Below are positions 1 to 43,114 of a stretch of DNA of 43,114 nucleotides, in pieces. Position 1 is the first letter of the stretch. The number at the start of each line of letters is the position of its first letter. The position numbers and the translations under genes are program-made. The DNA is from a virus (Duplodnaviria; Caudoviricetes): positions 1 to 43,114 of the IMG/VR virus record IMGVR_UViG_3300043690_000007; one strand, 5' to 3'. The notes beneath the pieces are model-generated. The model was not told the DNA's origin, did not search any database, and saw only the letters and a list, made by a program, of their open reading frames with translations.

Positions 1-37
1 CGGGCCTGCAGGAGCCTGCTGGAACGGTTTCCACAGG
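1..37 (+). repeat. Early-region double-hairpin element, copy 0 (3' half; 5' start is at the window end)
   Basis: CCTGCAGG-AG-CCTG..TGGAA CGGT TTCCA CAGG matches the 3' half of the other copies. Confidence 0.85.
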
Positions 38-56
38 AGCCCAGAGGAGGGGCAGC

Positions 57-275
57 ATGAAGGACATGAAAATGGATATGGACGGGGCAATCGCCATGGT
101 CGACACCAATTGCACCCGCATCCCAATGCAGCACATGGCCAGGGCGCTGGCTATGCACTCTTGGAACAATACACCCGCCGATTGGGCCCGACTGGCTGCA
201 GCGCGCTACGTGCTGCGGCATTGGCAGGCCTACCAAGCCGAGTGTAACCGGCGGCGCGATAGGAGGGGGCGGTGA
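57..275 (+). CDS. Hypothetical early phage protein
   Basis: Strong GAGGAGG RBS, ATG start, 72 aa. Confidence 0.75.
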   Translation: MKDMKMDMDGAIAMVDTNCTRIPMQHMARALAMHSWNNTPADWARLAAARYVLRHWQAYQAECNRRRDRRGR

Positions 276-373
276 ACGCTATCGCCTTCGCCTTCGTGGC
301 CTACGTGGTCGCCTGCCTTGTGGTCGGGCTCGCAATCGGAGTGCGGGCCCTGCTACGGGGCGACGATCTGTGA
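272..373 (+). CDS. Small membrane peptide (33 aa)
   Basis: GTGA overlap with upstream stop, AGGAGG RBS; own translation VNAIAFAFVAYVVACLVVGLAIGVRALLRGDDL is one hydrophobic helix. Confidence 0.6.
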   Translation: MNAIAFAFVAYVVACLVVGLAIGVRALLRGDDL

Positions 374-390
374 GGAGAGAGGAGGTGAGC

Positions 391-570
391 ATGTATCGCG
401 TTTGGTGCCGTGAGGATCGAACCCCCGACGAGGAGCCTGGACCCTTGGTCTTGGCCACCAGTCGGATGTTTCCGACTAGGGTCGAGGCGGAGGCGTACGC
501 GGCCACAGTCAACCCCCAGCGCGAGCCCCAAGTGAGGCCCGCCCATTGGGGCGCGACGGGCTGGGAGTGA
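391..570 (+). CDS. Hypothetical early phage protein
   Basis: GGAGGT RBS, ATG at 391; stop codon is the first triplet of repeat copy 1. Confidence 0.75.
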   Translation: MYRVWCREDRTPDEEPGPLVLATSRMFPTRVEAEAYAATVNPQREPQVRPAHWGATGWE

Positions 571-628
571 CGGCAGACACCCTGCAGCGCACGTAGGCTG
601 CAGGAGCCTGCTGGATGGTCCAGACAGG
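568..628 (+). repeat. Double-hairpin element copy 1
   Basis: TGACGGCAGACAC-CCTGCAGC(8)GCTGCAGG-AG-CCTGCTGGATGGTCCAGACAGG. Confidence 0.95.
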
Positions 629-653
629 AAGCCCAGAGGAGGGGCAAAGCACT

Positions 654-1013
654 ATGGCAATAACGACGGTACAGCGGGCCATTATCAATATGGCCACGGG
701 GATGATCTGGGAGGTGTGCGACCCACACGCCCATAACGATGAGTTGGGCCTGATCCAGGACTTTGTCAGCGCCGCAGACAAGCGCGGCGCGGCGGAACAG
801 TTCGACGCGAACTACTCCCACGGGGGCGGGTGGCGCAAGTTCGACGGGTTTAAGTTCGACCCTGAGAAATTGACCCTGAAGTATCCCGGCGACCCTGCCT
901 ATCACTGTCTGTTTCGCTCGCATCTGCGGGACGAGACGATCTTGGTTTTCGGTAACGCCTGGGTGGTCATCCTGCAGAAGGACGGCACCTGGGAAGTATC
1001 CCGTATGGACTGA
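654..1013 (+). CDS. Hypothetical early phage protein
   Basis: GAGGAGG RBS, ATG at 654; protein-like composition (GGGWRKF..KYPGDP..WVVILQKDG). Confidence 0.8.
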   Translation: MAITTVQRAIINMATGMIWEVCDPHAHNDELGLIQDFVSAADKRGAAEQFDANYSHGGGWRKFDGFKFDPEKLTLKYPGDPAYHCLFRSHLRDETILVFGNAWVVILQKDGTWEVSRMD

Positions 1014-1071
1014 CGGCAGACACCCTGCAGCGCGCCTGTGGCGCTGCAGGAGCCTGTCGATGGTCGATGGG
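1011..1071 (+). repeat. Double-hairpin element copy 2
   Basis: TGACGGCAGACAC-CCTGCAGCGC(7)GCGCTGCAGG-AG-CCTGTCGA TGG TCGATGGG. Confidence 0.95.
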
Positions 1072-1096
1072 ACGCCCAGAGGAGGGGCAAAGCAAA

Positions 1097-1324
1097 ATGA
1101 GACGCGGTGGGCCCTACCAGGGGCACAAGAACTGGAACCACTGGAACGTGTGCCTGTGGCTCATGAATGACGAGCCACTGTATCGGCACTGCGTGGCCAT
1201 GGCGCGGCGCTACGGAAAAGACGTGGCGGCACACAAGCTGGCCAAAGAGTTCGACGGCCAGAAAACGCCTGACGGGGCACCCTATAGCAAGTCCGCTATC
1301 AGGGCGGCGCTCGTCGGCCTGTGA
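1097..1324 (+). CDS. Conserved-type small early phage protein
   Basis: RBS, ATG at 1097; YxGxxNWxxWNVxLWxxNDExLY pattern recalled from phage early proteins. Confidence 0.8.
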   Translation: MRRGGPYQGHKNWNHWNVCLWLMNDEPLYRHCVAMARRYGKDVAAHKLAKEFDGQKTPDGAPYSKSAIRAALVGL

Positions 1325-1336
1325 GGAGGTGAGTAC

Positions 1337-1576
1337 ATGAGCAAGGGCAATCATCAGTTTCGAGTGACGGGGCGCTATCCGTTCCCCGTGGACATGCTGC
1401 GGTACGATTGCTGCTGGCCAGCTAGTAGCGAGGATGGCCACAAGATTGAGCAGTCCATCCGGCGCGAAAGCGAGGGGGCGGTGACGGTCACGCTCTACAC
1501 GGGCTATCCGTCAGCCCCGACCGTGGCGCGCTGGAAGTCGTTCGGGTGGACGGTCGATCCAACGTCCTACTACTGA
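1337..1576 (+). CDS. Hypothetical early phage protein
   Basis: GAGGAGGT RBS; FPxDMLRYDxCWP...RWxSFGW pattern. Confidence 0.8.
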   Translation: MSKGNHQFRVTGRYPFPVDMLRYDCCWPASSEDGHKIEQSIRRESEGAVTVTLYTGYPSAPTVARWKSFGWTVDPTSYY

Positions 1577-1650
1577 CGGCAGACACCCTGCAGGGCGGCA
1601 CACCCTGCAGGAGCCTGCTGATGGTGCAGGGGCGCTGGAATGGTCCAGCG
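1574..1650 (+). repeat. Double-hairpin element copy 3, with an extra ATGG-loop hairpin
   Basis: TGACGGCAGACAC-CCTGCAGGG(7)CCCTGCAGG-AG-CCTGC TGATGGT GCAGG, then CGCTGGA ATGG TCCAGCG. Confidence 0.95.
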
Positions 1651-1671
1651 TCGAAACCTTGAGGAGGTTAC

Positions 1672-1896
1672 ATGCCTAAGAGTTGGAAGCCGGTCGTCCA
1701 AGTGGGCGATGGCGGTGACACGGAAAAGTGGAGCGAAAACGGGCTCCGGTTCGCCACGCGAGAGGAGGCGGCGGACAACGCGCGCGACTTGATGCGGCGA
1801 TGGATGCTGGTCCTGCGCTGCGACGCGCACGAGAGCGACGACGAGCCCAATTACCGTTGGGTGGATGGCAAGCTGGAGGCGCTGCCTACAGCCTGA
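1672..1896 (+). CDS. Hypothetical early phage protein
   Basis: GAGGAGGT RBS, 74 aa, stop in repeat copy 4. Confidence 0.8.
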   Translation: MPKSWKPVVQVGDGGDTEKWSENGLRFATREEAADNARDLMRRWMLVLRCDAHESDDEPNYRWVDGKLEALPTA

Positions 1897-1957
1897 CGGC
1901 AGACACCCTGCAGGGGCGCTGGGCCTCTGCAGGAGCCTGCTGGCATGGTGCCAGAGG
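1894..1957 (+). repeat. Double-hairpin element copy 4
   Basis: TGACGGCAGACAC-CCTGCAGGGG(7)CCTCTGCAGG-AG-CCTGCTGGCA TGG TGCCAGAGG. Confidence 0.95.
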
Positions 1958-1981
1958 GGCCCAGAAAGTGAGGAGGTATTG

Positions 1982-2149
1982 ATGCCCGAATGGGAGGTCG
2001 TATTGTCCGAAACCTACCAAGACGTTTGTCGGCTGGAGGTGCCCGGTGGCTACATTTACCGGGTGCGCGAGATGGGATTGGCCGAGGACTCCCCAACCAT
2101 CATCAGCACGGTTTTTGTTCCCTGTGAGGTTCCGGGAAAGGCGGACTGA
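1982..2149 (+). CDS. Hypothetical early phage protein (55 aa)
   Basis: GAGGAGGT RBS, ATG at 1982; RLEVPGGYIYR pattern; stop in repeat copy 5. Confidence 0.75.
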   Translation: MPEWEVVLSETYQDVCRLEVPGGYIYRVREMGLAEDSPTIISTVFVPCEVPGKAD

Positions 2150-2208
2150 CGGCAGACACCCTGCAGCGTCACCCGGCGCTGCAGGAGCCTGCTGGGTGGT
2201 CCAGTAGG
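2147..2208 (+). repeat. Double-hairpin element copy 5
   Basis: TGACGGCAGACAC-CCTGCAGCGTC ACCC GGCGCTGCAGG-AG-CCTGCTGG GTGGT CCAGTAGG. Confidence 0.95.
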
Positions 2209-2230
2209 GTGCAACTGAGGAGGAGCATCA

Positions 2231-2443
2231 ATGGCTGAGAGATATTGGATAGGGCCTGTGCCTGATACGGATGACTTCGGTCTACCGATCACAGACACGT
2301 TCGTGGACGGGGCGACTGTCTACGGGCCCTGGGGCTTCATGAACCCCACGAGCTTCATGACCAAGGGGCGCGGCCTGGGAACGGGGCGCGGCCAGAAGTA
2401 CCGAAAGCAGCCTGACGGGCGGTGGCTGAAGGTAGGTGGCTGA
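2231..2443 (+). CDS. Hypothetical early phage protein
   Basis: GAGGAGG RBS; DGxTxxGPW...GxGLGxGxGQxY pattern. Confidence 0.8.
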   Translation: MAERYWIGPVPDTDDFGLPITDTFVDGATVYGPWGFMNPTSFMTKGRGLGTGRGQKYRKQPDGRWLKVGG

Positions 2444-2724
2444 TGGACAGCAAAATCATCTACGACAAGCACGGTCACGCCGTCACGTTCGTAGGCGCTG
2501 ATGCCGTCGCCCTGTATCGGGCGGCGGCTATCGCGTCGGCGCTGCGGTTCTATGCCAAGACAGGCATGAAGGTGAACACGGCCTACACGCCTACGAACAT
2601 GCTGAAGGCGGCGACCGGGATCACCGGCAAGGCCTACAAGCGCGGCCAATACACCCAGGCGGCGGCTGATCTGAGCGTCTGGGTGGAAACCATGAAGGCG
2701 GCGCTGCCGCACGAGGAGGGGTAA
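2443..2724 (+). CDS. Hypothetical early phage protein
   Basis: TGATG coupling; ITGKAYKRGQY basic motif. Confidence 0.8.
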   Translation: MDSKIIYDKHGHAVTFVGADAVALYRAAAIASALRFYAKTGMKVNTAYTPTNMLKAATGITGKAYKRGQYTQAAADLSVWVETMKAALPHEEG

Positions 2725-2936
2725 TGAGCGCGGCTCGCAAAGCCCAGCGCGAGACGCTGCAGGCCTACATCACAGCCCAGCTAGGCTGGATCAAGGCGCG
2801 CGGCGGCACGCTGCACGGATATCAAGCGTACTACGGCAAGCGGTCGGGCAAACGCTTCTACAAGGCCGATCAAGCCCAGCTAGAGCGGTTCGAGGCGAAG
2901 CTGCGGGAGTTCGACGGGCCGCAACTGGAGGGCTGA
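2724..2936 (+). CDS. Hypothetical early phage protein
   Basis: TAATG coupling, GAGGAGG RBS, stop in repeat copy 6. Confidence 0.75.
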   Translation: MSAARKAQRETLQAYITAQLGWIKARGGTLHGYQAYYGKRSGKRFYKADQAQLERFEAKLREFDGPQLEG

Positions 2937-3001
2937 CCGGCAGACACCCTGCAGGCCTGTCACAGGGGCCTGCAGGAGCCTGCTGGCATGGTGCCTGTAG
3001 G
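2934..3001 (+). repeat. Double-hairpin element copy 6
   Basis: TGACCGGCAGACAC-CCTGCAGGCC(9)GGCCTGCAGG-AG-CCTGCTGGCA TGG TGCCTGTAGG. Confidence 0.95.
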
Positions 3002-3018
3002 AAACTGAGGAGGAGTAA

Positions 3019-3135
3019 ATGTTTGCGCTTGCTTGGCATCTGATCGAGTTGGGGGCGTGCATCGCCATCATTCTCGGCGGGATCACCCTGGTCCTGAACA
3101 TCATCGTCGCGCTGCTCACAGGGAGGGGGCCGTGA
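3019..3135 (+). CDS. Small membrane peptide (38 aa)
   Basis: GAGGAGG RBS; own translation MFALAWHLIELGACIAIILGGITLVLNIIVALLTGRGP. Confidence 0.7.
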   Translation: MFALAWHLIELGACIAIILGGITLVLNIIVALLTGRGP

Positions 3136-3344
3136 GCGCCCGGTCAAAGCTGCCCGTGCCGACGCCAACGCCGCACGAGCTGCAGGCGGCGCGCAACCGG
3201 CTGGGGCTTACCCGGCTGGAGTTTGCCACCCGGCTCAACGTCTATGTTCGCACGCTGGACGGTTGGGAATATCACGGCGTGCGTCCCCCATCGTGCCTCG
3301 CCATCGCGCTGAAGCACATTCTTGAGGAGGCCAACCATGGCTGA
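3132..3344 (+). CDS. XRE-family HTH protein
   Basis: GTGA overlap; LQAARNRLGLTRLEFATRLNVYVRTLDGWE is a typical XRE HTH. Confidence 0.85.
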   Translation: MSARSKLPVPTPTPHELQAARNRLGLTRLEFATRLNVYVRTLDGWEYHGVRPPSCLAIALKHILEEANHG

Positions 3345-3741
3345 TCGCAAGCCCGCTGCGGGCGTCTTCATCGACCAAGACCCGATCATCGACAAGGTGC
3401 GGACAGTCGTCCACAACGACCCGCGCTCTTATGACGGGATCGCCCACGCAACCCATGGCCAGATCACGGGGGCGACAATTCGCAACTGGCTGTGGGGCAA
3501 CACCAAGCGCCCCCAATGGCACAAGGTGACCGCCGTTTTGAACGCCTGCGAGGTGGACGTTCTGACGCGGTACCGGGCGACCGGGCTGGATGTCATCCCG
3601 GACCAATCGCTCGCAAAAGCGTATGCCGATATCCACCGGCAGAACGTGCTTGCGCGCCAGAACGCCATACTGGCCAGGGCGAAGGCGGCTAAGGCCAGGA
3701 GGACCACACTCAAACTGAAGCCAGAGGAGGGCGGACAATGA
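3337..3741 (+). CDS. HTH (XRE-like) DNA-binding protein
   Basis: GAGGAGG RBS; SYDGIA...ITGATIRNWLWGNTKRPQ. Confidence 0.7.
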   Translation: MADRKPAAGVFIDQDPIIDKVRTVVHNDPRSYDGIAHATHGQITGATIRNWLWGNTKRPQWHKVTAVLNACEVDVLTRYRATGLDVIPDQSLAKAYADIHRQNVLARQNAILARAKAAKARRTTLKLKPEEGGQ

Positions 3742-4436
3742 GAGCGTCACAGATCGTAAATGTGAAGGGCAGGTCGAAAGCCTCCCTGTTCTTCAGGGCC
3801 GGGGAGTTTCCCGGCACCCGCTACGTCAAGTTCGACGGAACACTGGCCACGGGGCTGCGGCTGGTCCAGCAAGCGGGGCCGGGGCCAGATATCTACCTCA
3901 TCAACGCCCGCAACCTGTCCATCAGTATTCCCAACGACCATCGGGGCGAGCAGCCAGAGGGGCGCACCGATGGCGGGCAAGAGTTGACGGTTGCCAGCAA
4001 CGCGGACGGCGTGATGGTGCTGGAGCCCTATACCTTCAGGGTGCAGCCGCCCGACGCCAAGCGGCACTTCGTGGGGCCGGGGCCACGCAAGACCAACGCC
4101 GTGGCCACTTGGTCGCGGAAGGATATCAGCGGCGGGCGGCACGTCACGGCTGCGGGCGTCGTGCGGGAGCGCCTAAGCAACGTCCATCGGATCGACGCCT
4201 GGGTGACCGACGACCATGCCCTGCACCTCACCCAACGCGAGGCGCAAGCCTACCTCGCGCACAGGGAGCGGGTGAAGATACTGGATCAACTGTCCGGCCT
4301 GCAGGTCACCCGCGTGTTGCTCGATATAGATGACAATGTCGTCGTCATGTTCGCCAACGGGCAGGCGCTGCGGGTGAGCCCGTTGCCGGGGGGTGAACTG
4401 GTCCTGGGTATCCAGGGCGCGTTCACACAGGTGTGA
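3738..4436 (+). CDS. Hypothetical protein
   Basis: ATGA overlap, GAGGAGG RBS, 232 aa. Confidence 0.7.
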   Translation: MRASQIVNVKGRSKASLFFRAGEFPGTRYVKFDGTLATGLRLVQQAGPGPDIYLINARNLSISIPNDHRGEQPEGRTDGGQELTVASNADGVMVLEPYTFRVQPPDAKRHFVGPGPRKTNAVATWSRKDISGGRHVTAAGVVRERLSNVHRIDAWVTDDHALHLTQREAQAYLAHRERVKILDQLSGLQVTRVLLDIDDNVVVMFANGQALRVSPLPGGELVLGIQGAFTQV

Positions 4437-4696
4437 CCATGGGCAAGCCCTTCAAGGTCGTGATCCAGCCGATCACGCCAGGGCATCCATGCCGACGCTG
4501 GCGACCACGCCCAATGGGCATGGACAGCCAGCCGGTCGATGCCGCGCAGTACATCGCGGTGCAAACGGTGGCACTCGACATTTTCGCCGATTGCACCAAT
4601 GCCGGGATGCCGCTGCAGGACACCCTTGCCGCCATCTACTACAGCGGCGTCCACCACACCCTTGAAACCCTCAAGGAGAAGGGGTCAGCGGCGTAG
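4433..4696 (+). CDS. Hypothetical protein
   Basis: GTGA overlap; last gene of the rightward unit, converging on the helicase. Confidence 0.6.
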   Translation: MTMGKPFKVVIQPITPGHPCRRWRPRPMGMDSQPVDAAQYIAVQTVALDIFADCTNAGMPLQDTLAAIYYSGVHHTLETLKEKGSAA

Positions 4697-5584
4697 CGCC
4701 GTTTCATTGTGCCAGTCGTGCAGGGGGCGGTCCCTCTGCACGACGAACACGCCGCGCTCCCAGCGCAACGGGATGTTGCCGCCGTTCTTCCCATAATTGT
4801 TTTTCATCGTCTTTAGCTCGCGCCGGTCGGGGTCCACCGGGTCGCTGCCGTTCTTGGGCTTGGGCGGGTCTGTCAGGTACATGCGACCGCGCACGTCATT
4901 GTGCCACGCGCCGCTGCCGAACCTGCCGCTGCCGCTATTCAGCCCCTCATTGGAGGGGTGCGCCGACAGGATCACGGCTCCCTGCATTTCGACCGCCAAG
5001 CGCCGCAGCATGAGCAGGAACTGGCTCACCTGCTTTTCATTCACTTCGCTACCGCCGTACACCTTGCGGACGGTATCCAGCGCCAGCACGCGGATGCCGA
5101 GTTCCCGCACCTTGTGGCACAGCTGGTCCCACAGGCCGTACTTCTCCATTTCATCGGTGAATTTGTCGAACCCGGCCAGATAGGACAGCATGTTGAGACG
5201 GGACTGCAGGTACAGATGGTCGGCCATTTCGGCCATGTCGCACTGGTAGAACTGGTTGATGTCCATCTGGCGGATTTGAAGCTCCTCCTCCGAATCCTCG
5301 CAGAAGATACCCAGCACCGGCATTTGGTTGCAGGTATGGCCAACCCACTGGTCACCCAGCGCGAGCGCCGTCAGAAGCTGCTGGATCAGCAACGACTTGC
5401 CCTTGCCGCCGTCACCGCTGAGCATGACCACCTGCCCCTCCGGGATCAGCCCCTCAACCACCCAGCGCCGCTGGGGCTTGGCGCGGCCCTCCCAGCGGGC
5501 CACGGAGAACACCTCGAATTGTTCCAATAAGGTCGCGCGCTGCCACTGGTCGGGCGCGATTACATTCCCGTTATTCATCCCCAT
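4685..5584 (-). CDS. RecA-like AAA ATPase / replicative helicase (AAA_25, RepA-like)
   Basis: Walker A GDGGKGKS, CEDS, Walker B VLALDT, AHPS, GSGAW...R motifs. Confidence 0.9.
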   Translation of the reverse strand: MGMNNGNVIAPDQWQRATLLEQFEVFSVARWEGRAKPQRRWVVEGLIPEGQVVMLSGDGGKGKSLLIQQLLTALALGDQWVGHTCNQMPVLGIFCEDSEEELQIRQMDINQFYQCDMAEMADHLYLQSRLNMLSYLAGFDKFTDEMEKYGLWDQLCHKVRELGIRVLALDTVRKVYGGSEVNEKQVSQFLLMLRRLAVEMQGAVILSAHPSNEGLNSGSGRFGSGAWHNDVRGRMYLTDPPKPKNGSDPVDPDRRELKTMKNNYGKNGGNIPLRWERGVFVVQRDRPLHDWHNETALRR

Positions 5585-5620
5585 AGTCCTGTACTGAGCG
5601 TTTTGCGGTCGATTATTTGG

Positions 5621-5800
5621 TTAATGCTTTGCGCCTGGAGGCGATGGGGGAGGCGGGCGCGGCGGGGGCCACTTCGGGATGCCGTTGACGTTGTGCTGGC
5701 AGGTCGGGCAGGCCCAGCCATGCCCGGCCATCCACTCCAGCCGCTGCCCCCGTGTGCCGCAATGCTCGCACTTGGTCAGGGTCGCGCCGTCAGCCGCCAA
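5621..5800 (-). CDS. Small Zn-ribbon protein with Pro-rich tail (59 aa)
   Basis: Own translation from TTG: ..CEHCG..WACPTCQ..WPPPRPPPPSPP; fills the primase-helicase gap; weak RBS. Confidence 0.5.
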   Translation of the reverse strand: MAADGATLTKCEHCGTRGQRLEWMAGHGWACPTCQHNVNGIPKWPPPRPPPPSPPGAKH

Positions 5801-6725
5801 GGCAGGCGTTCCAGTCTTTGTGCCCCACAGGCTGCTGGATCACGATGTCGAGATCGCGGCGGCGACTCCCCAGCTTGCTCGCGGCCAGGGCGGACAACTT
5901 CTCGCCCGAGGCATCGCTGTCACCGAACAGCACGACCCGCTTGATGTGATCCGGCACGTCCACCGAGCCCATGCGCGCCTCGCCGCACGAGGCCCACACC
6001 GGGATGGAGAACAGCTGCATGGCGGACAGGCCATCCTCGATGCTGCCAGCGATGCCCAGCATGTCGCCCCAGGCGGGGGCCAACCGGACAGCACCGTGCC
6101 CCAACACCCCCAGGCTGGTTTTGTGGCGCTTGCCTTCGATCCTGATGGCGTCTCCCGTGGCCGTGTCTAGCCACACGCGCTGGATGCCGGTCACCGCGCC
6201 TGCCGGGCTCTGGATCGCGCCGACAAGCGCAGGGTAATTGCGCTCGGTCTGGCCATCGTAACATTCTGCAACATAGCCCAGCTGGTCGCGGAGCGGCACG
6301 TTGATGCGGCGGACATGGCGCAGGTAGGTGTGGGCCAGGGTGCCGATCACCGGCTCGCGCTTCATCCAGACATTGTGGGCATGGGCGATCCGGCGGGCGT
6401 CATCCTCGCGTTCGGACAGCACCGGGAATTGAGCCTGGACGCGGTCGCGCTTGGGCAGGTCCACCTCGCGGCCCAGCAGCTTCTCCACCGCTGCGCTGAA
6501 GCTGCAGCCGTCGTTCTGCATCACCCAGTCGATGGCGTCACCGTTCGCGCCACAACCGAAGCAGTGGAAGAAGCCCTTGTCCGTGACGTAGAAGCTCGGC
6601 GTGCGCTCGTTGTGGAAGGGGCACAGCCCCACCAAGTCATGGCCCCGGCGCTTCAGCGCCACGCTCTGGCCGACAATATCTGACAGCTGGACAGCCTTCG
6701 CTGCCTCTACATCCCTCGTGTCCAT
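5790..6725 (-). CDS. DNA primase (CHC2 zinc finger + Toprim)
   Basis: GLCPFHNERTPSF..FFHCFGCG zinc finger; C-terminal FGDSD and KDWN Toprim features. Confidence 0.92.
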   Translation of the reverse strand: MDTRDVEAAKAVQLSDIVGQSVALKRRGHDLVGLCPFHNERTPSFYVTDKGFFHCFGCGANGDAIDWVMQNDGCSFSAAVEKLLGREVDLPKRDRVQAQFPVLSEREDDARRIAHAHNVWMKREPVIGTLAHTYLRHVRRINVPLRDQLGYVAECYDGQTERNYPALVGAIQSPAGAVTGIQRVWLDTATGDAIRIEGKRHKTSLGVLGHGAVRLAPAWGDMLGIAGSIEDGLSAMQLFSIPVWASCGEARMGSVDVPDHIKRVVLFGDSDASGEKLSALAASKLGSRRRDLDIVIQQPVGHKDWNACLGG

Positions 6726-6824
6726 AAGCGCCCCCTCTTTGCCCTTACGCTAGGGCAAGGGAGGGGGGCGGCGTCAATCGAATTAAACGAAACGGATTAG
6801 GTGCGATTACCCAGGTAGAAATAC

Positions 6825-7235
6825 CTACGGGGTCACGTCGTAGACGCTGATCGACAGGCCGGGCGCGGACCAGTACCGCTTGTTGATCGTGGCGCTGACG
6901 ATCTGTGCGTCATCCCGCCACACGATGCCGCTGAGCCCGTCCAACATCTTCAGGATGTTGTCCACATCAGGCTTCTTTGTCGGCAGCTCCAGCCCCTGCA
7001 GGGCGCGCTCGCGGCGCTTCTTGCTCCAGCTGGCTGGGACATCCATCGCGACATCGAGGACCACGCGCAGCGGCACCTCCAGCGGCGGGCGACCCGCCAT
7101 CTGCTCCTGCCCGGCCATGCGAAGCGCCGCCTCGTAGTTCACGGTTTCTTTGGGCGTGTAGGCGTGCCCGGTCTTCCGCATGAAGCGCGGCCTGCCTTTG
7201 CCGCGCACCGGCCCGGCTAGATAGATTTCGATCAT
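6825..7235 (-). CDS. rusA: RusA-family Holliday junction resolvase
   Basis: GKGRPRF N-terminus, KPDVDNILK..D..WRDDAQIV catalytic motif. Confidence 0.92.
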   Translation of the reverse strand: MIEIYLAGPVRGKGRPRFMRKTGHAYTPKETVNYEAALRMAGQEQMAGRPPLEVPLRVVLDVAMDVPASWSKKRRERALQGLELPTKKPDVDNILKMLDGLSGIVWRDDAQIVSATINKRYWSAPGLSISVYDVTP

Positions 7236-7459
7236 TGGTCCTGCTGCTGCCGGTCGAACCAGTTGACGCAGTCGCTGACGGTGACTGCGCCGCCGGTCGC
7301 CACCTCAATGGCGATCAGCGTTTTGACGGCGGGCTCGCGACCGCCGATGACGTGGTAAAGGGTGGTTTTGGACAGGCCGTGTTCTGCGGCCCAGGCGAAG
7401 ATTGAATAACCCTGCTCGTACAGCCACGCATCGAGTGGGTGGGGTTCATCGTTGCTCAT
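7232..7459 (-). CDS. Cro/XRE-like HTH regulator
   Basis: WAAEHGLSKTTLYHVIGGREP..IEVATGGAVT; first gene of a divergent pair. Confidence 0.8.
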   Translation of the reverse strand: MSNDEPHPLDAWLYEQGYSIFAWAAEHGLSKTTLYHVIGGREPAVKTLIAIEVATGGAVTVSDCVNWFDRQQQDQ

Positions 7460-7470
7460 AGGGGGTAATC

Positions 7471-7507
7471 ATATAGCACTAGCATTTCCCGCTGGCGAGA
7501 CTTATAG
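7471..7507. promoter_or_regulatory. Overlapping divergent sigma70-like promoters
   Basis: Minus: CTCGCC-N17-CTATAT (7499-7471); plus: CTAGCA-N17-TTATAG (7479-7507); resembles the rhizobial CTTGAC-N17-CTATAT consensus. Confidence 0.55.
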
Positions 7508-7543
7508 ACCGTGGGTCGAGTAAGCTGAACCAGAGGAGGAGAG

Positions 7544-8338
7544 ATGCTCACAGCCGCCCAGCTGGAGGAGCGCCGCAACGGCGTCGGCTCCAGTGACGCC
7601 CGCAAAATCATGGCCGGGGATTGGTACGATCTTTGGGCCGAGAAGACGGGGCGGGTCATCCCGCCGCCGATCCTAAGCCCGTGGGATGCGCTGCTACGCC
7701 ACCACATCGAGCCCGCGATCCTCGACTACTGGGAGCAGGTTCACGAGTGCGACCTGATCTACCGGGGCGATGCGATCACCCACCCCACCCTGTCGATCAT
7801 CCGCGCGACCCTCGACGGCTATGACGATCAGGAGGGCCGGGTGGTCGATGCCAAGCTGCTCAACCAGTTCACCCCCGACAAGGAGAACTGGATTATCGAC
7901 CGCTACGGCTGGCAGATGGTCCATCAGATGGCGGTCATGGGCTGCGACAAGGGCTCGCTCTACATCAGCATCCACATGGCCAAGCCGTACCGCGTGGACT
8001 GGGAGCGCGATCACTTCCAAGAGGCGATGTATATCGACCGCTGCAAGGAGTTCTGGTCCTACGTCGAGCAGGATAAGGAGCCCCCAGGCGCTCCGCCGGT
8101 CGAGGTTCCTGTGCCGGTCGAGCTGATGCGCACTATCGACATGAGCGACAGCAACCAGTGGGGCGCGTTCTCTGCCGACTGGCTGGAACATGCCGCCGCC
8201 GCCAAGGCCTTCGACCTCGCCGCCAAGGGGCTGAAGGGGCTAGTGCCCAAGGACGCCGGGCGCGTCTTCGGCAAGACGCTAGAGATCACCCGCGACGGGC
8301 GGGGCCTGACCATCAAGAAGCTGGAGCCTAAGCCATGA
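7544..8338 (+). CDS. YqaJ/lambda-exonuclease family recombinase
   Basis: RRNGVGSSDA, LWAEKTG, ATLDG..VVDAK, WQMVHQM motifs. Confidence 0.9.
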   Translation: MLTAAQLEERRNGVGSSDARKIMAGDWYDLWAEKTGRVIPPPILSPWDALLRHHIEPAILDYWEQVHECDLIYRGDAITHPTLSIIRATLDGYDDQEGRVVDAKLLNQFTPDKENWIIDRYGWQMVHQMAVMGCDKGSLYISIHMAKPYRVDWERDHFQEAMYIDRCKEFWSYVEQDKEPPGAPPVEVPVPVELMRTIDMSDSNQWGAFSADWLEHAAAAKAFDLAAKGLKGLVPKDAGRVFGKTLEITRDGRGLTIKKLEPKP

Positions 8339-8973
8339 CCACCGAAGCGATAGAGCCTGCGCCCTGGTGCAAAGATGCGCCGTTCCTCGTCACGCTATTC
8401 GGTGATGGCGCGGGCGCGGTCCTTGTGCGTGGCTGGGACGCGCTTTGCGAGGAACTGATCGCGGCCCATTACCACGATCCGGATCAGGACCAGCGCGAGG
8501 AAGTTCTGGCTTACCTGACGGATTGGGAAAGCTGGGAAAACGATAGCGCCACAGGACTGCCCTACCACCTGAGCCTCACATACGAGGACGGGTCGATCAG
8601 CGTCACACGCGTAACCGAGGACAAAGCCAGCCAGCGCAGCACTGGAGCAGAAGGAGACGAGGGCATGAGCGGATTTATGCTTGAGAGCTTCATTGCTGAG
8701 CAAGACGGGCGACCATTACCCATGCTCGTTGATCTTGGCTACTTCTATGCGAACGGCGCTGTCGATGATGTGGTTCGGGGGCGATACGAGGACGTATTGG
8801 CTGCGGGTGTCTCTCGTCGCAACTGTCAGATCGTTGGGCATGGTCGCCTATTCGTAAAGGTTCCACCGCGGAAGATCGCTTCTTTTGCAGAAGCTTTCCC
8901 GATTCATATCGGTTCGACCTACTGGCGCGCCACTCATCATTGGCGAGGACTCGACAAGGATGATCCAGCATGA
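8335..8973 (+). CDS. Hypothetical protein (atypical codon usage)
   Basis: ATGA coupling on both sides; visibly more A/T at third positions. Confidence 0.65.
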   Translation: MTTEAIEPAPWCKDAPFLVTLFGDGAGAVLVRGWDALCEELIAAHYHDPDQDQREEVLAYLTDWESWENDSATGLPYHLSLTYEDGSISVTRVTEDKASQRSTGAEGDEGMSGFMLESFIAEQDGRPLPMLVDLGYFYANGAVDDVVRGRYEDVLAAGVSRRNCQIVGHGRLFVKVPPRKIASFAEAFPIHIGSTYWRATHHWRGLDKDDPA

Positions 8974-9239
8974 CCAACCGCGACCGCATTGGGGCACCGC
9001 TTCAAATGAGTGCATGGAAACCCATAACCGGCCCGATGAAGGGCAAGTACCTGATCACGAACAACATCACCGCTCGGGATGCGAGCGGACAGATGAGTCA
9101 CGTATGGGTTGGCTACATCATCGAGAATTATTCGGGACCGGATTGGCACGGCAAATTCGTGAGCTTCGACGATGCCGACCGGAAGATCCACGAAATCACG
9201 CACTACGCCGAAATCCCGATGCCCGAGGCCCAGCCATGA
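8970..9239 (+). CDS. Hypothetical protein
   Basis: ATGA coupling; WKPI...ITHYAEIPMP resembles DUF551-like phage proteins. Confidence 0.7.
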   Translation: MTNRDRIGAPLQMSAWKPITGPMKGKYLITNNITARDASGQMSHVWVGYIIENYSGPDWHGKFVSFDDADRKIHEITHYAEIPMPEAQP

Positions 9240-9694
9240 CCGACCGCGACCGCCTATCCGCAATTCGAGAGAGGCACGAGAAGGCAACGCCGGGTGAGTG
9301 GCGCGCGGGAAGTTATCTCGCCGTGCGCGGTCAAACCGGCACCGTGGAGGTTTGGTGTGATGGCAAGTGGAAGGTCCACATCGCAACCGTTTTTCCCGTC
9401 CAGACCGGCTGGGACAGCGACGAAGAAATTCCGCTTCCCGTTATAGCCGAAGATGAAGCCTTCATCGCCCATGCCCACCAGGACATCCCCTACCTACTCT
9501 CCCAACTCTCCGCAGCAGAGAAGGCGCTTGCAGAGGCGAGGGCAGAAGGGATTGAGGCCGCTGCGAAGTGGCACGAGAACGAGGCGAACGAACAGGATAG
9601 CTGGGGAGGTCCGCCAGTTGGCTTGATGCGGCCCGACCAGCACCGCAGAGCAGCCAAGGCCATCCGCGCCCTGAAGGGAGAAGCACAACAATGA
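9236..9694 (+). CDS. Ead/Ea22-like phage protein
   Basis: ATG at 9236; IRERHEKATPGEW...DEAFIAHAHQDIPYLL pattern. Confidence 0.75.
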   Translation: MTDRDRLSAIRERHEKATPGEWRAGSYLAVRGQTGTVEVWCDGKWKVHIATVFPVQTGWDSDEEIPLPVIAEDEAFIAHAHQDIPYLLSQLSAAEKALAEARAEGIEAAAKWHENEANEQDSWGGPPVGLMRPDQHRRAAKAIRALKGEAQQ

Positions 9695-9858
9695 CCGACC
9701 GCCCCTGCGGCCTGTGCAAAGGCATGAAGGTCGTGACCCGGCCAACCAAAATCCCCCAGTCCCACAACCGCATCCGCAAGGGCCTGTGGTGGATCACCGA
9801 GACGTGTGAAGCCTGCAATGGCAGCGGCATTAAAACCCCAAAAGGACCAATCGAATGA
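9691..9858 (+). CDS. Small DnaJ-type zinc-finger protein (55 aa)
   Basis: Own translation MTDRPCGLCKG...TCEACNGSG; ATGA overlap on both sides. Confidence 0.7.
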   Translation: MTDRPCGLCKGMKVVTRPTKIPQSHNRIRKGLWWITETCEACNGSGIKTPKGPIE

Positions 9859-10550
9859 GTGAGTTGAGCGTTACCGTTGAGACATCACCAGAAGTGGGCG
9901 ATCTGTTTGCCGCGCTGGCCCAGGCCCAGGCCGAGATTGAGGGCGCGTCCAAAGACGCCAAAAACGATCATTTTCGCCAGAAGTACGCCACGCTGGCGTC
10001 CATTTACGACGCATCGCGCGCGGCGCTGACCAAGCACGGCATTGCCGTGATCCAGTCGCCGTTCAACGATGGTCAGGACGTGGGCGTGGCAACCACCCTT
10101 GGGGTCGCCAGCGGCCAGTGGCTGCGCGGGCGTATCCAGTGCTGCCCGACCAAGGCGGACGCGCAGGGCGTGGGCTCCGTCATCACCTACATGCGCCGCT
10201 ATGCCCTCGCGGCGATGGTTGGCGTGGCCCAGGAGGATGACGATGCAGAAGGGGCCATGGGGCGCTCCAGCAAGCCGTCAGCGCCGCGCGCAGAACCCAA
10301 GGGGCAGTCGCGGGCAGACCGGAGAGACGCGCAGGACAATGAGGAGCATAAACTGGCCCAGGCGCACTACAGCCGCCTGCGGGAGGCTGTGCTTGCCACG
10401 CTCGATCATGCCGAACTGGACGAGTTGGAAAGGCGCGAGGCGAGCGCGCTGGCGCTGATCAAAAAGGTGAGCCCCACGGGGTACGAGACGATCACCGGCA
10501 TGATCACCGCCAAACACGACTATATCTCGCGCGGACCTGGGGAGCGGTAA
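9855..10550 (+). CDS. erf: ERF-family single-strand annealing protein
   Basis: KDAKNDHF..KYATL; GSVITYMRRYALAAMVGVAQEDDDA signature. Confidence 0.92.
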   Translation: MSELSVTVETSPEVGDLFAALAQAQAEIEGASKDAKNDHFRQKYATLASIYDASRAALTKHGIAVIQSPFNDGQDVGVATTLGVASGQWLRGRIQCCPTKADAQGVGSVITYMRRYALAAMVGVAQEDDDAEGAMGRSSKPSAPRAEPKGQSRADRRDAQDNEEHKLAQAHYSRLREAVLATLDHAELDELERREASALALIKKVSPTGYETITGMITAKHDYISRGPGER

Positions 10551-10567
10551 CCAACGAGGAGGAGGTT

Positions 10568-10825
10568 ATGAAATCTGAGGAAGCGGACAAGAAAGCCAAG
10601 CAGCTGGTGCAGCAGGCTTTCTATGAATCGTCCTACGAAAGCATCGTGAAGGTGGGCATGTCGCTCAACCTGTCACCGCAGGAAGTGGGCGACATCCTGT
10701 GCTGGATGGTCGCCCAATTCATGGTGGACTTCATCAAGCCGGGCCATGAGGAGGCGATCCTGCAGGGCATTGCCGACGAGATCAAACGCCGTCAGGTGCT
10801 GATCGAATGTGAGGGGAGCGCGTGA
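10568..10825 (+). CDS. Hypothetical protein
   Basis: GAGGAGGAGG RBS, 85 aa. Confidence 0.75.
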   Translation: MKSEEADKKAKQLVQQAFYESSYESIVKVGMSLNLSPQEVGDILCWMVAQFMVDFIKPGHEEAILQGIADEIKRRQVLIECEGSA

Positions 10826-11082
10826 TGGCCGACGACGCAAGCACCCCGGCGCTGCAGAAGTTCAAAATCGTCACTCGTGGCGGGCAGCACTACGACATCA
10901 TCTTTCCCGGCGACATGCGGATGTTGCTCATGCACATCAAGGCCCAGGGGGAGTTTATGAACCCCCAGCTGTGGGTTCCGCTGGTCGAGATCAGCCACGT
11001 CATCAACGTGTCGTCTTTCGGGGAGGAGGCTGGGGCCAATGTCGTGCCCATGTTCCAGGGGCCGACTGATGCCCCGCAATGA
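10825..11082 (+). CDS. Hypothetical protein
   Basis: TGATG coupling, GGAG RBS. Confidence 0.7.
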   Translation: MADDASTPALQKFKIVTRGGQHYDIIFPGDMRMLLMHIKAQGEFMNPQLWVPLVEISHVINVSSFGEEAGANVVPMFQGPTDAPQ

Positions 11083-11161
11083 CCTGATCCTCTGGGTCTT
11101 TTTATTCATCGCGCTGATTGTGGCGCTTCATCTAACAGGTTGGCTAGGGTTCGTACCATGA
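11069..11161 (+). CDS. Small membrane peptide (30 aa)
   Basis: Own translation MPRNDLILWVFLFIALIVALHLTGWLGFVP; ATGA-coupled to ssb. Confidence 0.55.
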   Translation: MPRNDLILWVFLFIALIVALHLTGWLGFVP

Positions 11162-11619
11162 GTGAGCAGAAAGAACGCAAGTACCACAACGAGATCAGGC
11201 TCCGGGGCACGCTGGGGCGCGACCCGGAGTTCCGCCGCACCCAGTTCGGCGGGTTCGTCACCATGAGCGTGGCCACCACCGAGAGCTGGAAGGCCGCTGA
11301 CGGCCAGTGGAAGGACGAGACGCAGTGGCACCGGGTCCAGTCGTGGGACCAAGACCATGTCCAGATGGCTGAGGATTGGCGCAAGGGCGACCGCGTCGAG
11401 CTGACCGGCAAGATGGTCTACCGCGAGTGGGAGAAGGATGGGGTCAAGCGCAATCAGGCCGAGATACACGTCAAGAAATGGCACGAGTTCTTCAAGGTCG
11501 AGGATGCCCGGCCCCGGCGACAGGAGCAGACCTATGCGGGCAACACCCGCAGCCGCCCGGCCCCGGCCAGCCGCGACTTCAACGACGGCTTGGACGACGG
11601 CTCAGAAATTCCCTTTTGA
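11158..11619 (+). CDS. ssb: Single-stranded DNA-binding protein
   Basis: LRGTLGRDPE, VATTESWK..TQWHRV, acidic C-terminal EIPF tail. Confidence 0.95.
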   Translation: MSEQKERKYHNEIRLRGTLGRDPEFRRTQFGGFVTMSVATTESWKAADGQWKDETQWHRVQSWDQDHVQMAEDWRKGDRVELTGKMVYREWEKDGVKRNQAEIHVKKWHEFFKVEDARPRRQEQTYAGNTRSRPAPASRDFNDGLDDGSEIPF

Positions 11620-11631
11620 GGAGGCAGGCAC

Positions 11632-11814
11632 ATGAGAATGGTCCGGCGTATCATGACGCTCGATATCACCGTCCCGGCGGACATGGAATTTGTCAGGACG
11701 GATATCGCCAAGCTGATCCAGGCACACATCCACGCCTCATCGCCCAACACCCATTGGGGCAAGGCGCGCTACCCCGTCGTGAAGACGGTGGCCGTCATGG
11801 ATAAGGCCCGATAG
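11632..11814 (+). CDS. Hypothetical protein
   Basis: GAGGAGG RBS, 60 aa. Confidence 0.65.
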   Translation: MRMVRRIMTLDITVPADMEFVRTDIAKLIQAHIHASSPNTHWGKARYPVVKTVAVMDKAR

Positions 11815-11906
11815 GGTAACACCCGATTGAGCCCTATCGTCCTGATCTGGCATGGTTCTCGCCAACGAGAGGGGATGCGCTACTCCAACCCGAAGGAGGA
11901 GCAACA

Positions 11907-12113
11907 ATGCCTTATGATGGAGAGCAGCCCACGGCTGCGACACTTGTGCCGCCCAGGTTCGATATGGCGGAGGTGGCGGAGGCCCACCGGGCCGTGCAGG
12001 CCAGCACCCCGACCCCTGCACAGTACGCGCTGATGCAGCGGTACTATCAGGCGCACCCGATCAGCGGGGGTGGTGGCGGCAGCGGCGTCGTCACGTTCAT
12101 CGTCACGCCATAG
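11907..12113 (+). CDS. Hypothetical protein
   Basis: AAGGAGG RBS, ends just before a hairpin. Confidence 0.55.
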   Translation: MPYDGEQPTAATLVPPRFDMAEVAEAHRAVQASTPTPAQYALMQRYYQAHPISGGGGGSGVVTFIVTP

Positions 12114-12143: not shown

Positions 12144-12440
12144 TACGCTGCCTTCTCCTCTTTCAGCCGCGCGATCAGTTCCCGCCGTTTGTTGGTCTTA
12201 GCGCCCTGCAGGGTGGTTTCATCCACGCGGGCCTGGGTCGATAGGACTGCCGCAAGCGTGTCGCGCTTCAGGCTGGCGATCTTCAGAAAGTCCCGGTCGT
12301 CGCGGCTCACCTGAATGTCCAAAATCCAGTTCGCCTCGCGCAGCGCCTTGTCGGTCAGCTGGGCCAGAAACTCGGATTTCTCTAGTACACCAACTGCCTC
12401 GCGAACCCTTTGCTCTGAATGAGCGGGAGTTGCTTTTTCA
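12143..12440 (-). CDS. Hypothetical helical protein; start uncertain
   Basis: Last ~90 codons of ORF 12143..12820 look protein-like and fill the gap to the terminator; no ATG/GTG/TTG seen near the upstream stop. Confidence 0.55.
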
Positions 12441-40806: not shown

Positions 40807-40907
40807 CAGAATTTTCGGAGGTGACCGCCAAACTATCAAACCCGCCCGGCCACCTATCAAATCTCGCGAACGGGAGGAAAAGCTGGGGTGACCAGAATTT
40901 TCGGAGG
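40807..40907 (+). repeat. 15-bp direct repeat CAGAATTTTCGGAGG x2
   Basis: Copies at 40807-40821 and 40893-40907; CTATCAAA twice between them. Confidence 0.8.
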
Positions 40908-41107: not shown

Positions 41108-41120
41108 GACTATCCAGCAA

Positions 41121-42111: not shown

Positions 42112-42140
42112 CTAGCAACGTTACGCAAGTTGCGCTATAT
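42112..42140 (+). promoter_or_regulatory. Putative early promoter with overlapping inverted repeat
   Basis: CTAGCA-N17-CTATAT; GCAAC-N9-GTTGC palindrome overlapping the -35 and spacer. Confidence 0.6.
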
Positions 42141-42803: not shown

Positions 42804-43111
42804 GAAAGCCACTGACAAGAGCCCAGCGCGAGGCGCTCAAACGCGTCTATGACCGTGGGCCGCTCTATAATCTGCCGGTCGATGACAGGCACGACATCGC
42901 GCGCTACGTCCATCGCGGGCCGGAACAAGTGAACGCGACGGGCATAGCAGCGAGCCCACTGGGGCACGGGTCGCGCGATGGCTTCGTAAACCCGCTCACC
43001 TATCGCCAATTCCGGCGCAACGTCTACAGGCCCGGTTATGACAACTGCATCATGGTGCCATGGCTCGGTGTGTGGCTTGGCATCGAAAGGGACGGTTACA
43101 CCCACAGCTAA
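42800..43111 (+). CDS. Hypothetical early phage protein
   Basis: LTRAQREALKRVYDR..YRQFRR..WLGIERDGYTHS; TAA stop followed by CGG like other repeat-abutting genes. Confidence 0.8.
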   Translation: MRKPLTRAQREALKRVYDRGPLYNLPVDDRHDIARYVHRGPEQVNATGIAASPLGHGSRDGFVNPLTYRQFRRNVYRPGYDNCIMVPWLGVWLGIERDGYTHS

Positions 43112-43114
43112 CGG

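Follow-up and report, generated by a model that had tools for sequence, protein, structure and literature searches.

The early operon and its repeated spacers

The window analysed here, that is the whole stretch of 43,114 nucleotides of the Caudoviricetes record IMGVR_UViG_3300043690_000007 from a soil phage, contains an early operon of 20 ORFs that runs across the window ends to position 4696. It is headed by a predicted promoter, which we take to be of the alphaproteobacterial RpoD-like type (Table 1). Seven of the 19 operon junctions have gaps of 81-95 nt and all seven hold the repeated element described below; the gaps at the remaining 12 junctions measure -8 to +17. Positions 1-4500 were searched for sigma-70-type promoters, CTATAT-type sites and + strand intrinsic terminators, and none was found. 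A small gene for a helix-turn-helix (HTH)-like protein belongs to the last block of the operon, and genes for RecE-like and Erf-like proteins, which could recombine the repeats, lie further downstream. Searches among the 63 ORFs revealed no phage RNA polymerase, integrase, HUH transposase or RegB match; the closest match of a 1193-aa protein is to ejection proteins of the P22 gp16 type (score 0.90), which we treat as a lead.

Table 1. Coordinates (window numbering) of the element copies and of the genes and promoter discussed in the text
Feature	Position	Strand	Description
Predicted early promoter	42112..42140	+	CTAGCA-N17-CTATAT; heads the 20-ORF operon
Copy 7, 5' part	43109..43114	+	TAA stop of ORF 42800-43111 and start of leader; 22 bases absent from the record come next
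Copy 7, 3' part	1..50	+	3' arm of stem 1, AG, stem 2 (loop CGG), RBS 44-50; next ATG 57
Copy 1	568..642	+	Stop of ORF 391-570; leader 10 nt; stem 1 581-604; AG; stem 2 607-628; RBS 636-642; next ATG 654
Copy 2	1011..1085	+	Stop of ORF 654-1013 to RBS; next ATG 1097 (DUF7249 gene)
Copy 3	1574..1667	+	Stop of ORF 1337-1576 to RBS; extra hairpin with ATGGT loop; next ATG 1672
Copy 4	1894..1976	+	Stop of ORF 1672-1896 to RBS; next ATG 1982
Copy 5	2147..2223	+	Stop of ORF 1982-2149 to RBS; next ATG 2231
Copy 6	2934..3013	+	Stop of ORF 2724-2936 to RBS; next ATG 3019
Small HTH-like gene	3132..3344	+	Last block of operon; phrog_2104 E 2e-8; Pfam HTH_3 E 0.012, below cut-off
RecE-like exonuclease gene	7544-8338	+	
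Erf-like annealase gene	9855-10550	+	

Six complete copies of the element lie inside the window on the + strand and a seventh is split across its ends. An earlier note on this DNA had given the same six starts and had described a leader, stem 1, an AG linker, stem 2 and a GAGGAGG ribosome-binding site (RBS) in each; inspection and alignment bear this out for all six, and the stem-1 extensions and stem-2 inner arms that it listed are correct. Its stated range of 1..3001 stops slightly short of the end of copy 6, which lies at 3013. Four features had been overlooked: a stop codon at the 5' edge of every copy, an alternative fold (see below), a conserved stem-2 loop and a third hairpin in copy 3. 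The stop codon of the upstream gene forms the 5' edge in 7/7 copies (TAA, not TGA, in copy 7), each copy extends from there to the RBS of the next gene, and the distance from stop to stem 1 is always 10-11 nt. The copy alignment shows 31 of ~35 core bases to be invariant, and the 16-mer GGCAGACACCCTGCAG occurs six times on the + strand and never on the - strand or in a reversed control (up to two mismatches allowed). The stem-2 loop reads TGG in six copies and CGG in one, and the additional hairpin of copy 3 has the same loop.

That the seventh copy is real, as had been proposed, follows from assemblies of two independent runs, in each of which one contig (X2, 700 nt; X3, 151 nt) covers both window ends and places exactly 22 bases between the two. 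Because these contigs span both ends with 22 extra bases, the record represents a circle of 43,136 bp that has been opened within copy 7. Of the joining bases, 18/22 agree with those in the leader and the 5' arm of copy 6.

Covariation, strand preference and a predicted alternative fold

The variable parts of the element were said to change in sequence while keeping their pairing, and both stems do covary. The two halves of each stem pair better with each other than with the halves of other copies, with equally good results in only 2/720 permutations for stem 1 (six copies) and 12/5040 for stem 2 (seven copies); over the whole alignment 96% of cells are paired vs 89.6% in shuffles, a level reached by 0/500 shuffles. 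Selection on a + strand structure, likewise suggested before, finds support in the relative stability of the two strands, which favours + for stem 2 in 6/7 copies (one tie) and for stem 1 in 5/6. Folding z-scores of the whole element do not discriminate between the strands (-1.7 to -2.9 for +, -1.1 to -3.5 for -). A + strand cis-acting structured element, favouring the mRNA strand and without a match in Rfam, is supported.

Folding also predicts that the leader is able to pair with the 5' arm of stem 2, forming a long hairpin that excludes the two-hairpin form. In this predicted fold A, the leader and CUGYYG form part of a hairpin with 6-7 bp, a 4x3 internal loop and 8-11 bp (14-20 pairs in total in this phage), and in fold B, which consists of two short hairpins, the 3' arm switches to stem 2. 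The computed probability of fold A is at least 0.96 in 6/6 copies as long as the 3' end of the transcript lies 7-10 nt inside the arm, and the two folds are at most 1.5 kcal/mol apart in 5/6 copies; fold A is predicted to form first during transcription and to be near-isoenergetic with fold B. Leader pairing is retained in copy 2, where the stem-2 arm is CTGTCG, and one extra C in the leader of copy 6 adds a pair to the long fold. The short lower helix of fold A is not significant taken alone in this phage, the leader pairing being no better than that of a shuffled leader in 16-30% of trials.

Searches for homologues and spacers of related phages

We found no sequence homologue of the element in Rfam, IMG/VR, metagenomes or GTDB. 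The Rfam search that had been called for (Rfam 15) returned one match for the entire window, at E 2.7 and 30 kb off, and none in the element even at E up to 5; six loci of relatives had no match at gathering score. Pattern searches of IMG/VR returned 57 single matches for stem 1 and 11 for linker, loop and RBS, the leader pattern found 120 metagenome loci from 54/64 parts, and none of these has the layout of the element; neither of two GTDB matches is a homologue, and one of them (L290) is a plain perfect inverted repeat. Blastn against cultured phages gave 23 records and, among the matches listed (20 rows), all lie in neighbouring genes. Covariance model R1 (65 sources, 5 + 26 whole records) found nothing below E 0.06 outside the window, and single-protein scans detected no close relative. 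The Mesorhizobium phage Cp1R7A-A1 region has two genes in common with this phage, but its repeats are unrelated. Literature on repeated intergenic hairpins and processing sites in phage early regions (mostly open papers, large motif catalogues being covered as far as Rfam) contained nothing on this element.

Phages related through their terminase carry spacers of like layout but other sequence at 10/44 loci. A stop-anchored filter, set only after examples had been seen, retained 14/201 early-side junctions of these relatives vs 6/404 control-locus and 0/134 structural-side junctions (P ~0.001). Their usual form is a long hairpin, with 16-21 pairs in 11/12 cassettes (the twelfth was misfolded by the script), and a shuffled-leader test on 11 cassettes gave a combined P of 6e-5, with 5/11 singly below 0.05. 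The stop codon is paired in the relatives, and its middle base covaries with its partner (A-U 7, G-C 7, G-U 1, unpaired 1 and gap 1 in 17 rows). RNAalifold returned no consensus structure from a MAFFT alignment of 17 of these cassettes, and a covariance model of the element did not detect them, homology between the two being by layout only. The earlier note had recognised no named family; a claim of a new family holds for the sequence only, the layout being found again in related phages and having a likeness to the early processing signals of T7 and to PeSL joints.

PeSL cassettes of the T4-type phages RB49/phi1 are, according to excerpts of the source, repeated modules of stop codon, stem-loop and Shine-Dalgarno sequence among hypervariable small genes, which mediate shuffling and at which gene content changes (PMC2839356). 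The latter is seen here in two relatives with a cassette of other sequence, L198 and L199, whose gene content switches ~10 nt or less from cassette edges at three breakpoints, and a DUF7249 gene is flanked by cassettes in this phage as well as in L199. When the cassette of L198 and L226 was used as a search pattern, 35 loci were returned, the true ones being only the two known before. Together with the presence of RecE and Erf genes, these similarities would fit a joint acting at the DNA level only, in which the repeat provides a stop codon and an RBS, RecE/Erf recombination shuffles the genes and the RNA fold is incidental. We consider this very unlikely, as covarying hairpins with + strand wobble pairs are unnecessary for homologous recombination, the element holds no promoter and the contigs of four runs, which drop rare variants, contain no joints or variants between copies. 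The element also differs from the PeSLs as excerpted by the lack of a sigma-70 promoter (0 promoter-like sites in 1-4500) and of a terminator-like U tract, and by its two hairpins and alternative fold.

A candidate processing signal and competing readings

The interpretation that we favour, tentatively and at somewhat less than an even chance, is that of a T7-type intercistronic processing signal, likely for RNase III, that carries its own 5' cap hairpin. The spacer filling each long gap of the early operon would serve to direct processing of the mRNA: during synthesis of the RNA, the leader and CUGYYG would pair to give fold A, the 3' arm of which may later switch to fold B, and the predicted long irregular hairpin would be nicked by a double-strand-specific nuclease of the host, most probably RNase III. 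A single 3'-side cut near the internal loop would leave stem 1 as the 3' end of the upstream piece, whereupon stem 2 would fold at the extreme 5' end of the downstream piece, before its own RBS; the predicted cut, 2 nt past stem 1, leaves a 5' hairpin without overhang in 6/6 copies (-8.3 to -13.5 kcal/mol). The 20 genes could thus reach the cell as up to eight stable messages. A ribosome on the stop codon would be expected to melt the lower helix and to favour fold B and, as a side effect, the repeats would likely act as crossover points for gene exchange.

According to excerpts of the respective sources, the early T7 precursor is cleaved during transcription at five sites, which yields mRNAs with one or two cistrons (PMC4858673), its R1.1 site has 60 nt and a 4/5 internal loop (PMC6121014), and internal loops restrict cleavage to one strand, leaving protective 3' hairpins (PMC1540722). 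A signal of this type comprises about two helical turns of duplex with an asymmetric internal loop; fold A, in competition with fold B, gives 14-20 pairs and a 4x3 loop. The element shares with these signals its location between small early genes on one host-transcribed polycistronic message and, in the predicted fold A, an irregular hairpin with an asymmetric internal loop, and would give mono- and oligocistronic mRNAs with protective hairpins. It differs in being GC-rich, shorter and without the E. coli-type pair signature, its cleavage being predicted, as well as in beginning exactly at the stop codon and in having a 3' arm with an exclusive second hairpin and a conserved loop. An RNase III-type site had been among four functions offered in the earlier note and is the best fit of these, by way of a long hairpin that had not been seen; its sequence signature was looked for and not found.

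At register GAG^C, both pairs at proximal-box position 2 are A-U/U-A, the type needed by E. coli and Aquifex RNase III, and position 4 is an unfavourable C-G; in model substrates, a C-G pair beside the cut lowers cleavage 7- to 10-fold. Scored with an E. coli in vivo pair matrix (PMC6212723 Table S4), neither the six copies (P 0.18-0.84) nor 12 cassettes of relatives (P 0.07-0.84) do better than their pair-permuted selves, with the reservation that the host enzyme, likely alphaproteobacterial, may follow other rules; the score of the proximal box by itself gave P 0.06-0.11. The two central positions of the predicted cut site are mostly unpaired, and these are paired in ~90% of E. coli RNase III double cuts. 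Fold A's 14-20 pairs also count against RNase III, as the S. meliloti enzyme requires longer helices than that of E. coli. Processing further leaves the invariant unpaired bases, the conserved YGG loop and the loop duplication in copy 3 unexplained.

These last features would suit a two-hairpin protein operator, in that leader and linker are unpaired yet invariant, the R-YGG-U loop is conserved and its hairpin is doubled in copy 3. A dimeric regulator, for instance the HTH-like protein encoded within the operon, would bind fold B and repress translation at the adjoining RBS, much as dimers of Aca2 bind a pair of hairpins, blocking the RBS (PMC13551039, excerpt). We regard this as distinctly unlikely, since the Aca motifs of that excerpt sit in 5' UTRs just past a promoter with a DNA operator, whereas the present copies are intercistronic and none follows the predicted promoter; moreover, 42% identical homologues of the HTH-like protein occur in the relatives L209 and L188, neither of whose records contains the element (best E 1.2 and 2.4). 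HK022 put (PMC9378689, excerpt) resembles the element, as does the Aca2 motif, in being an adjacent hairpin pair in a phage early transcript; judged by eye, the element has no triplex or A9-G35 architecture, and it occurs in seven intercistronic copies, not promoter-proximally. We give very little credence to the previously offered antiterminator of this kind, in which fold B would bind host RNA polymerase and guard the operon against (Rho) termination. Two stems, a very short linker and an early operon under host polymerase, with no phage polymerase found, agree with it, but put as excerpted depends on an A9-G35 pair and includes a triplex at its 5' end and a bulge in stem I, while stem 1 of the element is a simple palindromic helix whose tip varies freely; besides, there are seven copies, the first lies ~970 nt from the predicted promoter, and there is no + strand intrinsic terminator in 1-4500.

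The constant position behind the stop codon argues for an uncut insulator and stabiliser, which we judge unlikely. Stem 1 at the leading edge of the terminating ribosome would block re-initiation and 3' decay, and a fresh RBS would reset translation of the next block. In line with this, junctions without the element overlap or are short, and the stop-to-stem distance is 8-12 nt in relatives, which were chosen by that range. As excerpted, ribosome termination structures (RTSs), like the element, are stable structures directly past the stop codon, enriched at gaps >25 nt, and they block re-initiation in a synthetic operon (PMC7518266). According to the same excerpt they are a statistical, sequence-free feature that requires no fixed sequence, whereas the element is repeated with an invariant core; an insulator would also leave stem 2, its loop and the relatives' paired stop codon unexplained. 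Conceivable but rather improbable is a termination-sensing RNA switch used lineage-wide: on reaching the stop codon, a ribosome would open the lower helix and flip the spacer from the long fold to two hairpins, so that cutting or protein binding at each junction would track translation of the upstream gene. If true, it would provide a new link between mRNA processing and translation termination.

It is scarcely likely that the spacer embeds a mini-cistron, in which AGGAG of the linker would act as Shine-Dalgarno sequence for a start codon in the stem-2 loop and a short ORF would hand ribosomes to the next RBS. AGGAG does lie 7-9 nt ahead of ATG in five copies, GTG in one and ACG in one (copy 7), and the ORF ends at an RBS-overlapping TGA in copies 3, 4 and 6, while in copies 1 and 7 it shares the reading frame of the gene that follows; but the Shine-Dalgarno sequence is sequestered in both folds, ACG speaks against a start in copy 7, copies 2 and 5 misfit, 5/7 at one-third odds is marginal and post hoc, and the relatives' cassettes examined by eye have no such start. 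Slimmest of all is the chance of a self-cleaving ribozyme of unknown class, another of the functions offered earlier, for which nothing in support was found: invariant single-stranded bases between helices would be compatible with it and its products would equal those of the processing model, against which stand the lack of any Rfam match in the element and a sequence that is not kept among relatives. Inspection by eye revealed no hammerhead, HDV, twister or pistol pseudoknot or catalytic core in the element.

Several other candidates were rejected. Stop-codon read-through or hopping conflicts with extensions that are out of frame or closed, differing last sense codons and the TAA of copy 7. 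Integron attC sites are characterised by a GTT/AAC core and an integrase, REP elements by an HUH transposase and N4-type hairpin promoters by a virion RNA polymerase; the copies have no GTT/AAC boxes, and none of these three enzymes was found among the 63 ORFs. Against a RegB-type site, the GGAG is flanked here by helices and lacks the A-rich consensus of the excerpted source (PMC3014915), and there is no RegB match.

Returning to the processing reading, if true it would mean that early messages are processed in the T7 style across a large family of uncultured podophages. The design would be compact, one arm first forming half of a nuclease substrate and afterwards capping the product at its 5' end. 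The specificity of GC-rich (likely alphaproteobacterial) RNase III is poorly known, and the seven natural variants of this genome, with further ones in relatives, offer a convenient series of substrates for it; the element might also be used as a plug-in insulator in operon design.

Note also that the leader, with GG-N10-GC, matches 8/14 positions of the sigma-54 promoter consensus YTGGCACGrNNNTTGCW (PMC13207237), a candidate that we discarded given that 356/905 genomic GG-N10-GC sites score 8 or more. The strict form GGCA-N7-TGCW has two further occurrences elsewhere.

The repeated element and its place between genes

The repeated element is real. All six complete copies claimed by the earlier note were found with the parts it described (leader, stem 1, AG linker, stem 2 and GAGGAGG ribosome-binding site, RBS), and the seventh, which it placed across the window ends, is recovered in contigs of the same phage from two metagenome runs (X2 and X3) that span both ends with 22 bases between. 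Since these contigs join the ends in this way, the record represents a circular genome of 43,136 bp that was opened inside the repeat. The stems were also said to keep pairing while their sequence changes, and the copies' own halves indeed pair better than swapped ones, with permutations as good in 2/720 cases for stem 1 (six copies) and in 12/5040 for stem 2 (seven copies). Among aligned cells, 96% pair in the element vs 89.6% in shuffles. In agreement with the proposed strand specificity of the G-T wobbles, about 10 such pairs at variable positions, counted by eye, form only on the + strand, which is also the more stable one for stem 1 in 5/6 copies and for stem 2 in 6/7; folding z-scores of the whole element did not separate the strands. 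The stem-2 loop is kept (TGG in six copies, CGG in one), the tip of stem 1 varies freely, and the same loop as in stem 2 tops an additional hairpin in copy 3. A two-hairpin operator bound by an HTH protein, Aca2-like (PMC13551039), would account for this conserved loop, but the HTH gene is retained in relatives without the element.

Each copy opens with the stop codon that closes the preceding gene (TGA in six copies, TAA in one) and extends to the RBS of the next. Seven of the 19 operon junctions have gaps of 81-95 nt, each filled by the element, and the remaining 12, which overlap or have gaps of at most 17 nt, are without it. The stop-to-start distance is tighter than for permuted module lengths (P 0.008, copy 3 left out), in a post hoc test on copies of common descent. 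An insulator that also stabilises the RNA and is left uncut (RTS; PMC7518266) would account for the position of the element, but leaves its invariant core unexplained.

Positions of features in the window and in fetched loci (L-numbers, mostly terminase relatives)
Feature	Position	Strand	Remark
Element, copies 1-6	568, 1011, 1574, 1894, 2147, 2934	+	
Predicted promoter CTAGCA-N17-CTATAT	42112-42140	+	heads early operon
CTCGCC-N17-CTATAT site	7476	-	ahead of replication genes
Three sigma-70-like sites	40811-41116	-	
Early-gene RBSs in hairpin loops	43, 635, 1078, 1661, 3007, 3723, 42156, 42557		hairpins of 3-5 bp
542-aa ORF	12385-14010	-	at end of virion module
1193-aa protein	13695-17276	-	
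KTSC-domain gene (E 5e-19)	38158-38385	-	immediately upstream of terminase large subunit
Same-layout cassettes	L193, L196, L198, L199, L201, L202, L203, L207, L226, L255, others		
L198 cassettes	near 5964, 5388, 4671	-	
L267 intergenic modules	1-12083		Mesorhizobium phage Cp1R7A-A1
L290 inverted repeat	2858-2901		Bacteroidales genome

Predicted alternative folds and proposed mRNA processing

The element is best read as a candidate T7-type mRNA processing signal. A cut 2 nt past stem 1 would leave stem 1 with the upstream piece and is predicted to give the downstream piece a flush 5′ hairpin in 6/6 copies. A put-like antiterminator (PMC9378689), an embedded mini-cistron, a sigma-54 site (PMC4591121 and PMC13207237) and a ribozyme all fit the element poorly.

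According to folding predictions, the leader CGGCAG is able to base-pair to the stem-2 5′ arm. The result, fold A, is a single long hairpin interrupted by a 4x3 loop; it is incompatible with stem 2 and hence with fold B, the two-hairpin form. Fold A is predicted first, with a probability of at least 0.96 at 7-10 nt into the arm in 6/6 copies, and the two folds are predicted to lie at most 1.5 kcal/mol apart in 5/6. In the window's phage alone, a shuffled leader equals the real one in 16-20% of trials (five copies), and judged from this phage alone fold A is not proven. The lower helix of fold A takes up the first 6-7 nt past the stop codon, roughly the length that a terminating ribosome keeps single-stranded, so termination there would favour fold B.

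RNase III sequence rules were scored using a matrix derived from E. coli in vivo data (PMC6212723, Supplementary Table S4). When one base of the loop was omitted, the top-scoring register fell 3 nt upstream of the proposed cut register GAG^C in 5/6 copies, best-register scores being -22.7 to -27.6 vs thresholds of -25.5 and -33.8; GAG^C had the top proximal-box score in 6/6 copies (P 0.06-0.11). When gaps were kept and pairs permuted, no E. coli RNase III signature was found in the window's copies (P 0.18-0.84) or in the relatives' cassettes described below (P 0.07-0.84), and the pair beside the proposed cut is an unfavourable C-G. The case for RNase III therefore draws on where the element lies, on its predicted shape and on the T7 precedent, whereas its sequence lends no support. 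The B. subtilis rules are similar to those of E. coli (bioRxiv 10.1101/2023.03.12.532304), and S. meliloti RNase III cuts R1.1, the model site of T7 early mRNA, at other sites and requires longer helices.

Cassettes of the same layout in relatives

Sequence homologues of the element were found neither in Rfam, as the earlier note had proposed to search, nor in IMG/VR, metagenomes, GTDB or, by covariance model, the fetched records, and a targeted literature search within an incomplete full-text collection found no published description. The claim of a new structured RNA thus holds for the sequence family, which is absent from Rfam, but not for the kind of element, already known from T7 early processing signals and PeSL joints.

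Among 80 terminase-fetched loci, there are spacers of the same layout but different sequence: the stop codon is followed after 8-12 nt by a stem of 9-12 bp, next comes an arm that either pairs with the leader at the stop codon or makes a short second hairpin, and the RBS stands last. On the early side, a layout filter matched 14/201 candidate junctions, in 10 of the 44 loci with enough flank, vs 6/404 junctions in control loci of at least 55% GC and 0/134 on the structural side (Fisher P ~0.001); the filter was written after examples were seen and recovers 4/6 of the window's own whole copies. Leader pairing beats shuffles over 11 cassettes (combined P 6e-5; <0.05 in five, nothing in two), with partly related rows and script-set stem limits. 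In a 17-cassette alignment, the central stop-codon base and the base opposite it covary (A-U 7, G-C 7), although RNAalifold returned no consensus structure for this alignment. The long hairpin is the commoner form in the relatives; since some relatives are without the second hairpin and fold B is preferred by two copies in L199, neither fold is the minimum-energy state throughout. No repeated cassette of this kind was found in the closest terminase relatives, L209 and L188.

L198 and L199 share blocks of 80-93% identity, and at three points the end of a block lies no more than about 10 nt from the edge of a cassette. PeSL-like gene shuffling at repeats (PMC2839356) is likely as a side effect; a scan of 1-4500 found no promoter in the element. 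In the early region of L267, numerous modules recur between genes, made of GTTAAC hairpins and of boxes resembling promoters and RBSs; they are PeSL-like and unrelated to the window's element.

One uncatalogued cassette family occurs in several terminase relatives. In L198, L199, L226, L201/L202, L193 and L207, a C/U-stop leader pairs with a GCUYAG-type arm, and a pseudoknot is possible because this arm is also the loop of the second hairpin; six loci gave no Rfam match. L247 and L257 (early side) and L249 have another type of stop-to-RBS spacer, in which linkers of 1-4 nt join two hairpins; stem 2 differs between L247 and L257 by what look like compensatory changes. The perfect inverted repeat of L290 has 14 bases in common with leader and stem 1, the rest of the layout being absent, and this likeness is probably due to chance.

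The phage genome and its early operon

The window is a complete virus record of soil metagenome origin (63% GC), encoding terminase, portal, major capsid, RecE, Erf, SSB, RusA, primase and helicase. RNA polymerase, DNA polymerase and integrase had no match among its 63 ORFs, no cultured relatives above 30% identity were found for the capsid protein, and the best of 690 terminase homologues are 59-60% identical. The early operon comprises 20 small ORFs on the + strand, running from the predicted promoter over the window ends to 4696. This promoter follows the alphaproteobacterial consensus and, together with genes in common with Brevundimonas and Mesorhizobium phages, hints at an alphaproteobacterial host.

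Elsewhere, the 542-aa ORF has weak GARS_A and GARS_C matches (E 3e-5 and 6e-5, below cut-off) and may encode an ATP-grasp protein. The 1193-aa protein is without a match in PHROG and PDB, its nearest named cluster being a P22 gp16-type DNA transfer protein (0.90). Many early-gene RBSs lie in hairpin loops (for example GCCC-AGAGGAG-GGGC), also at junctions without the element, and resemble CsrA/RsmA-type GGA loops.
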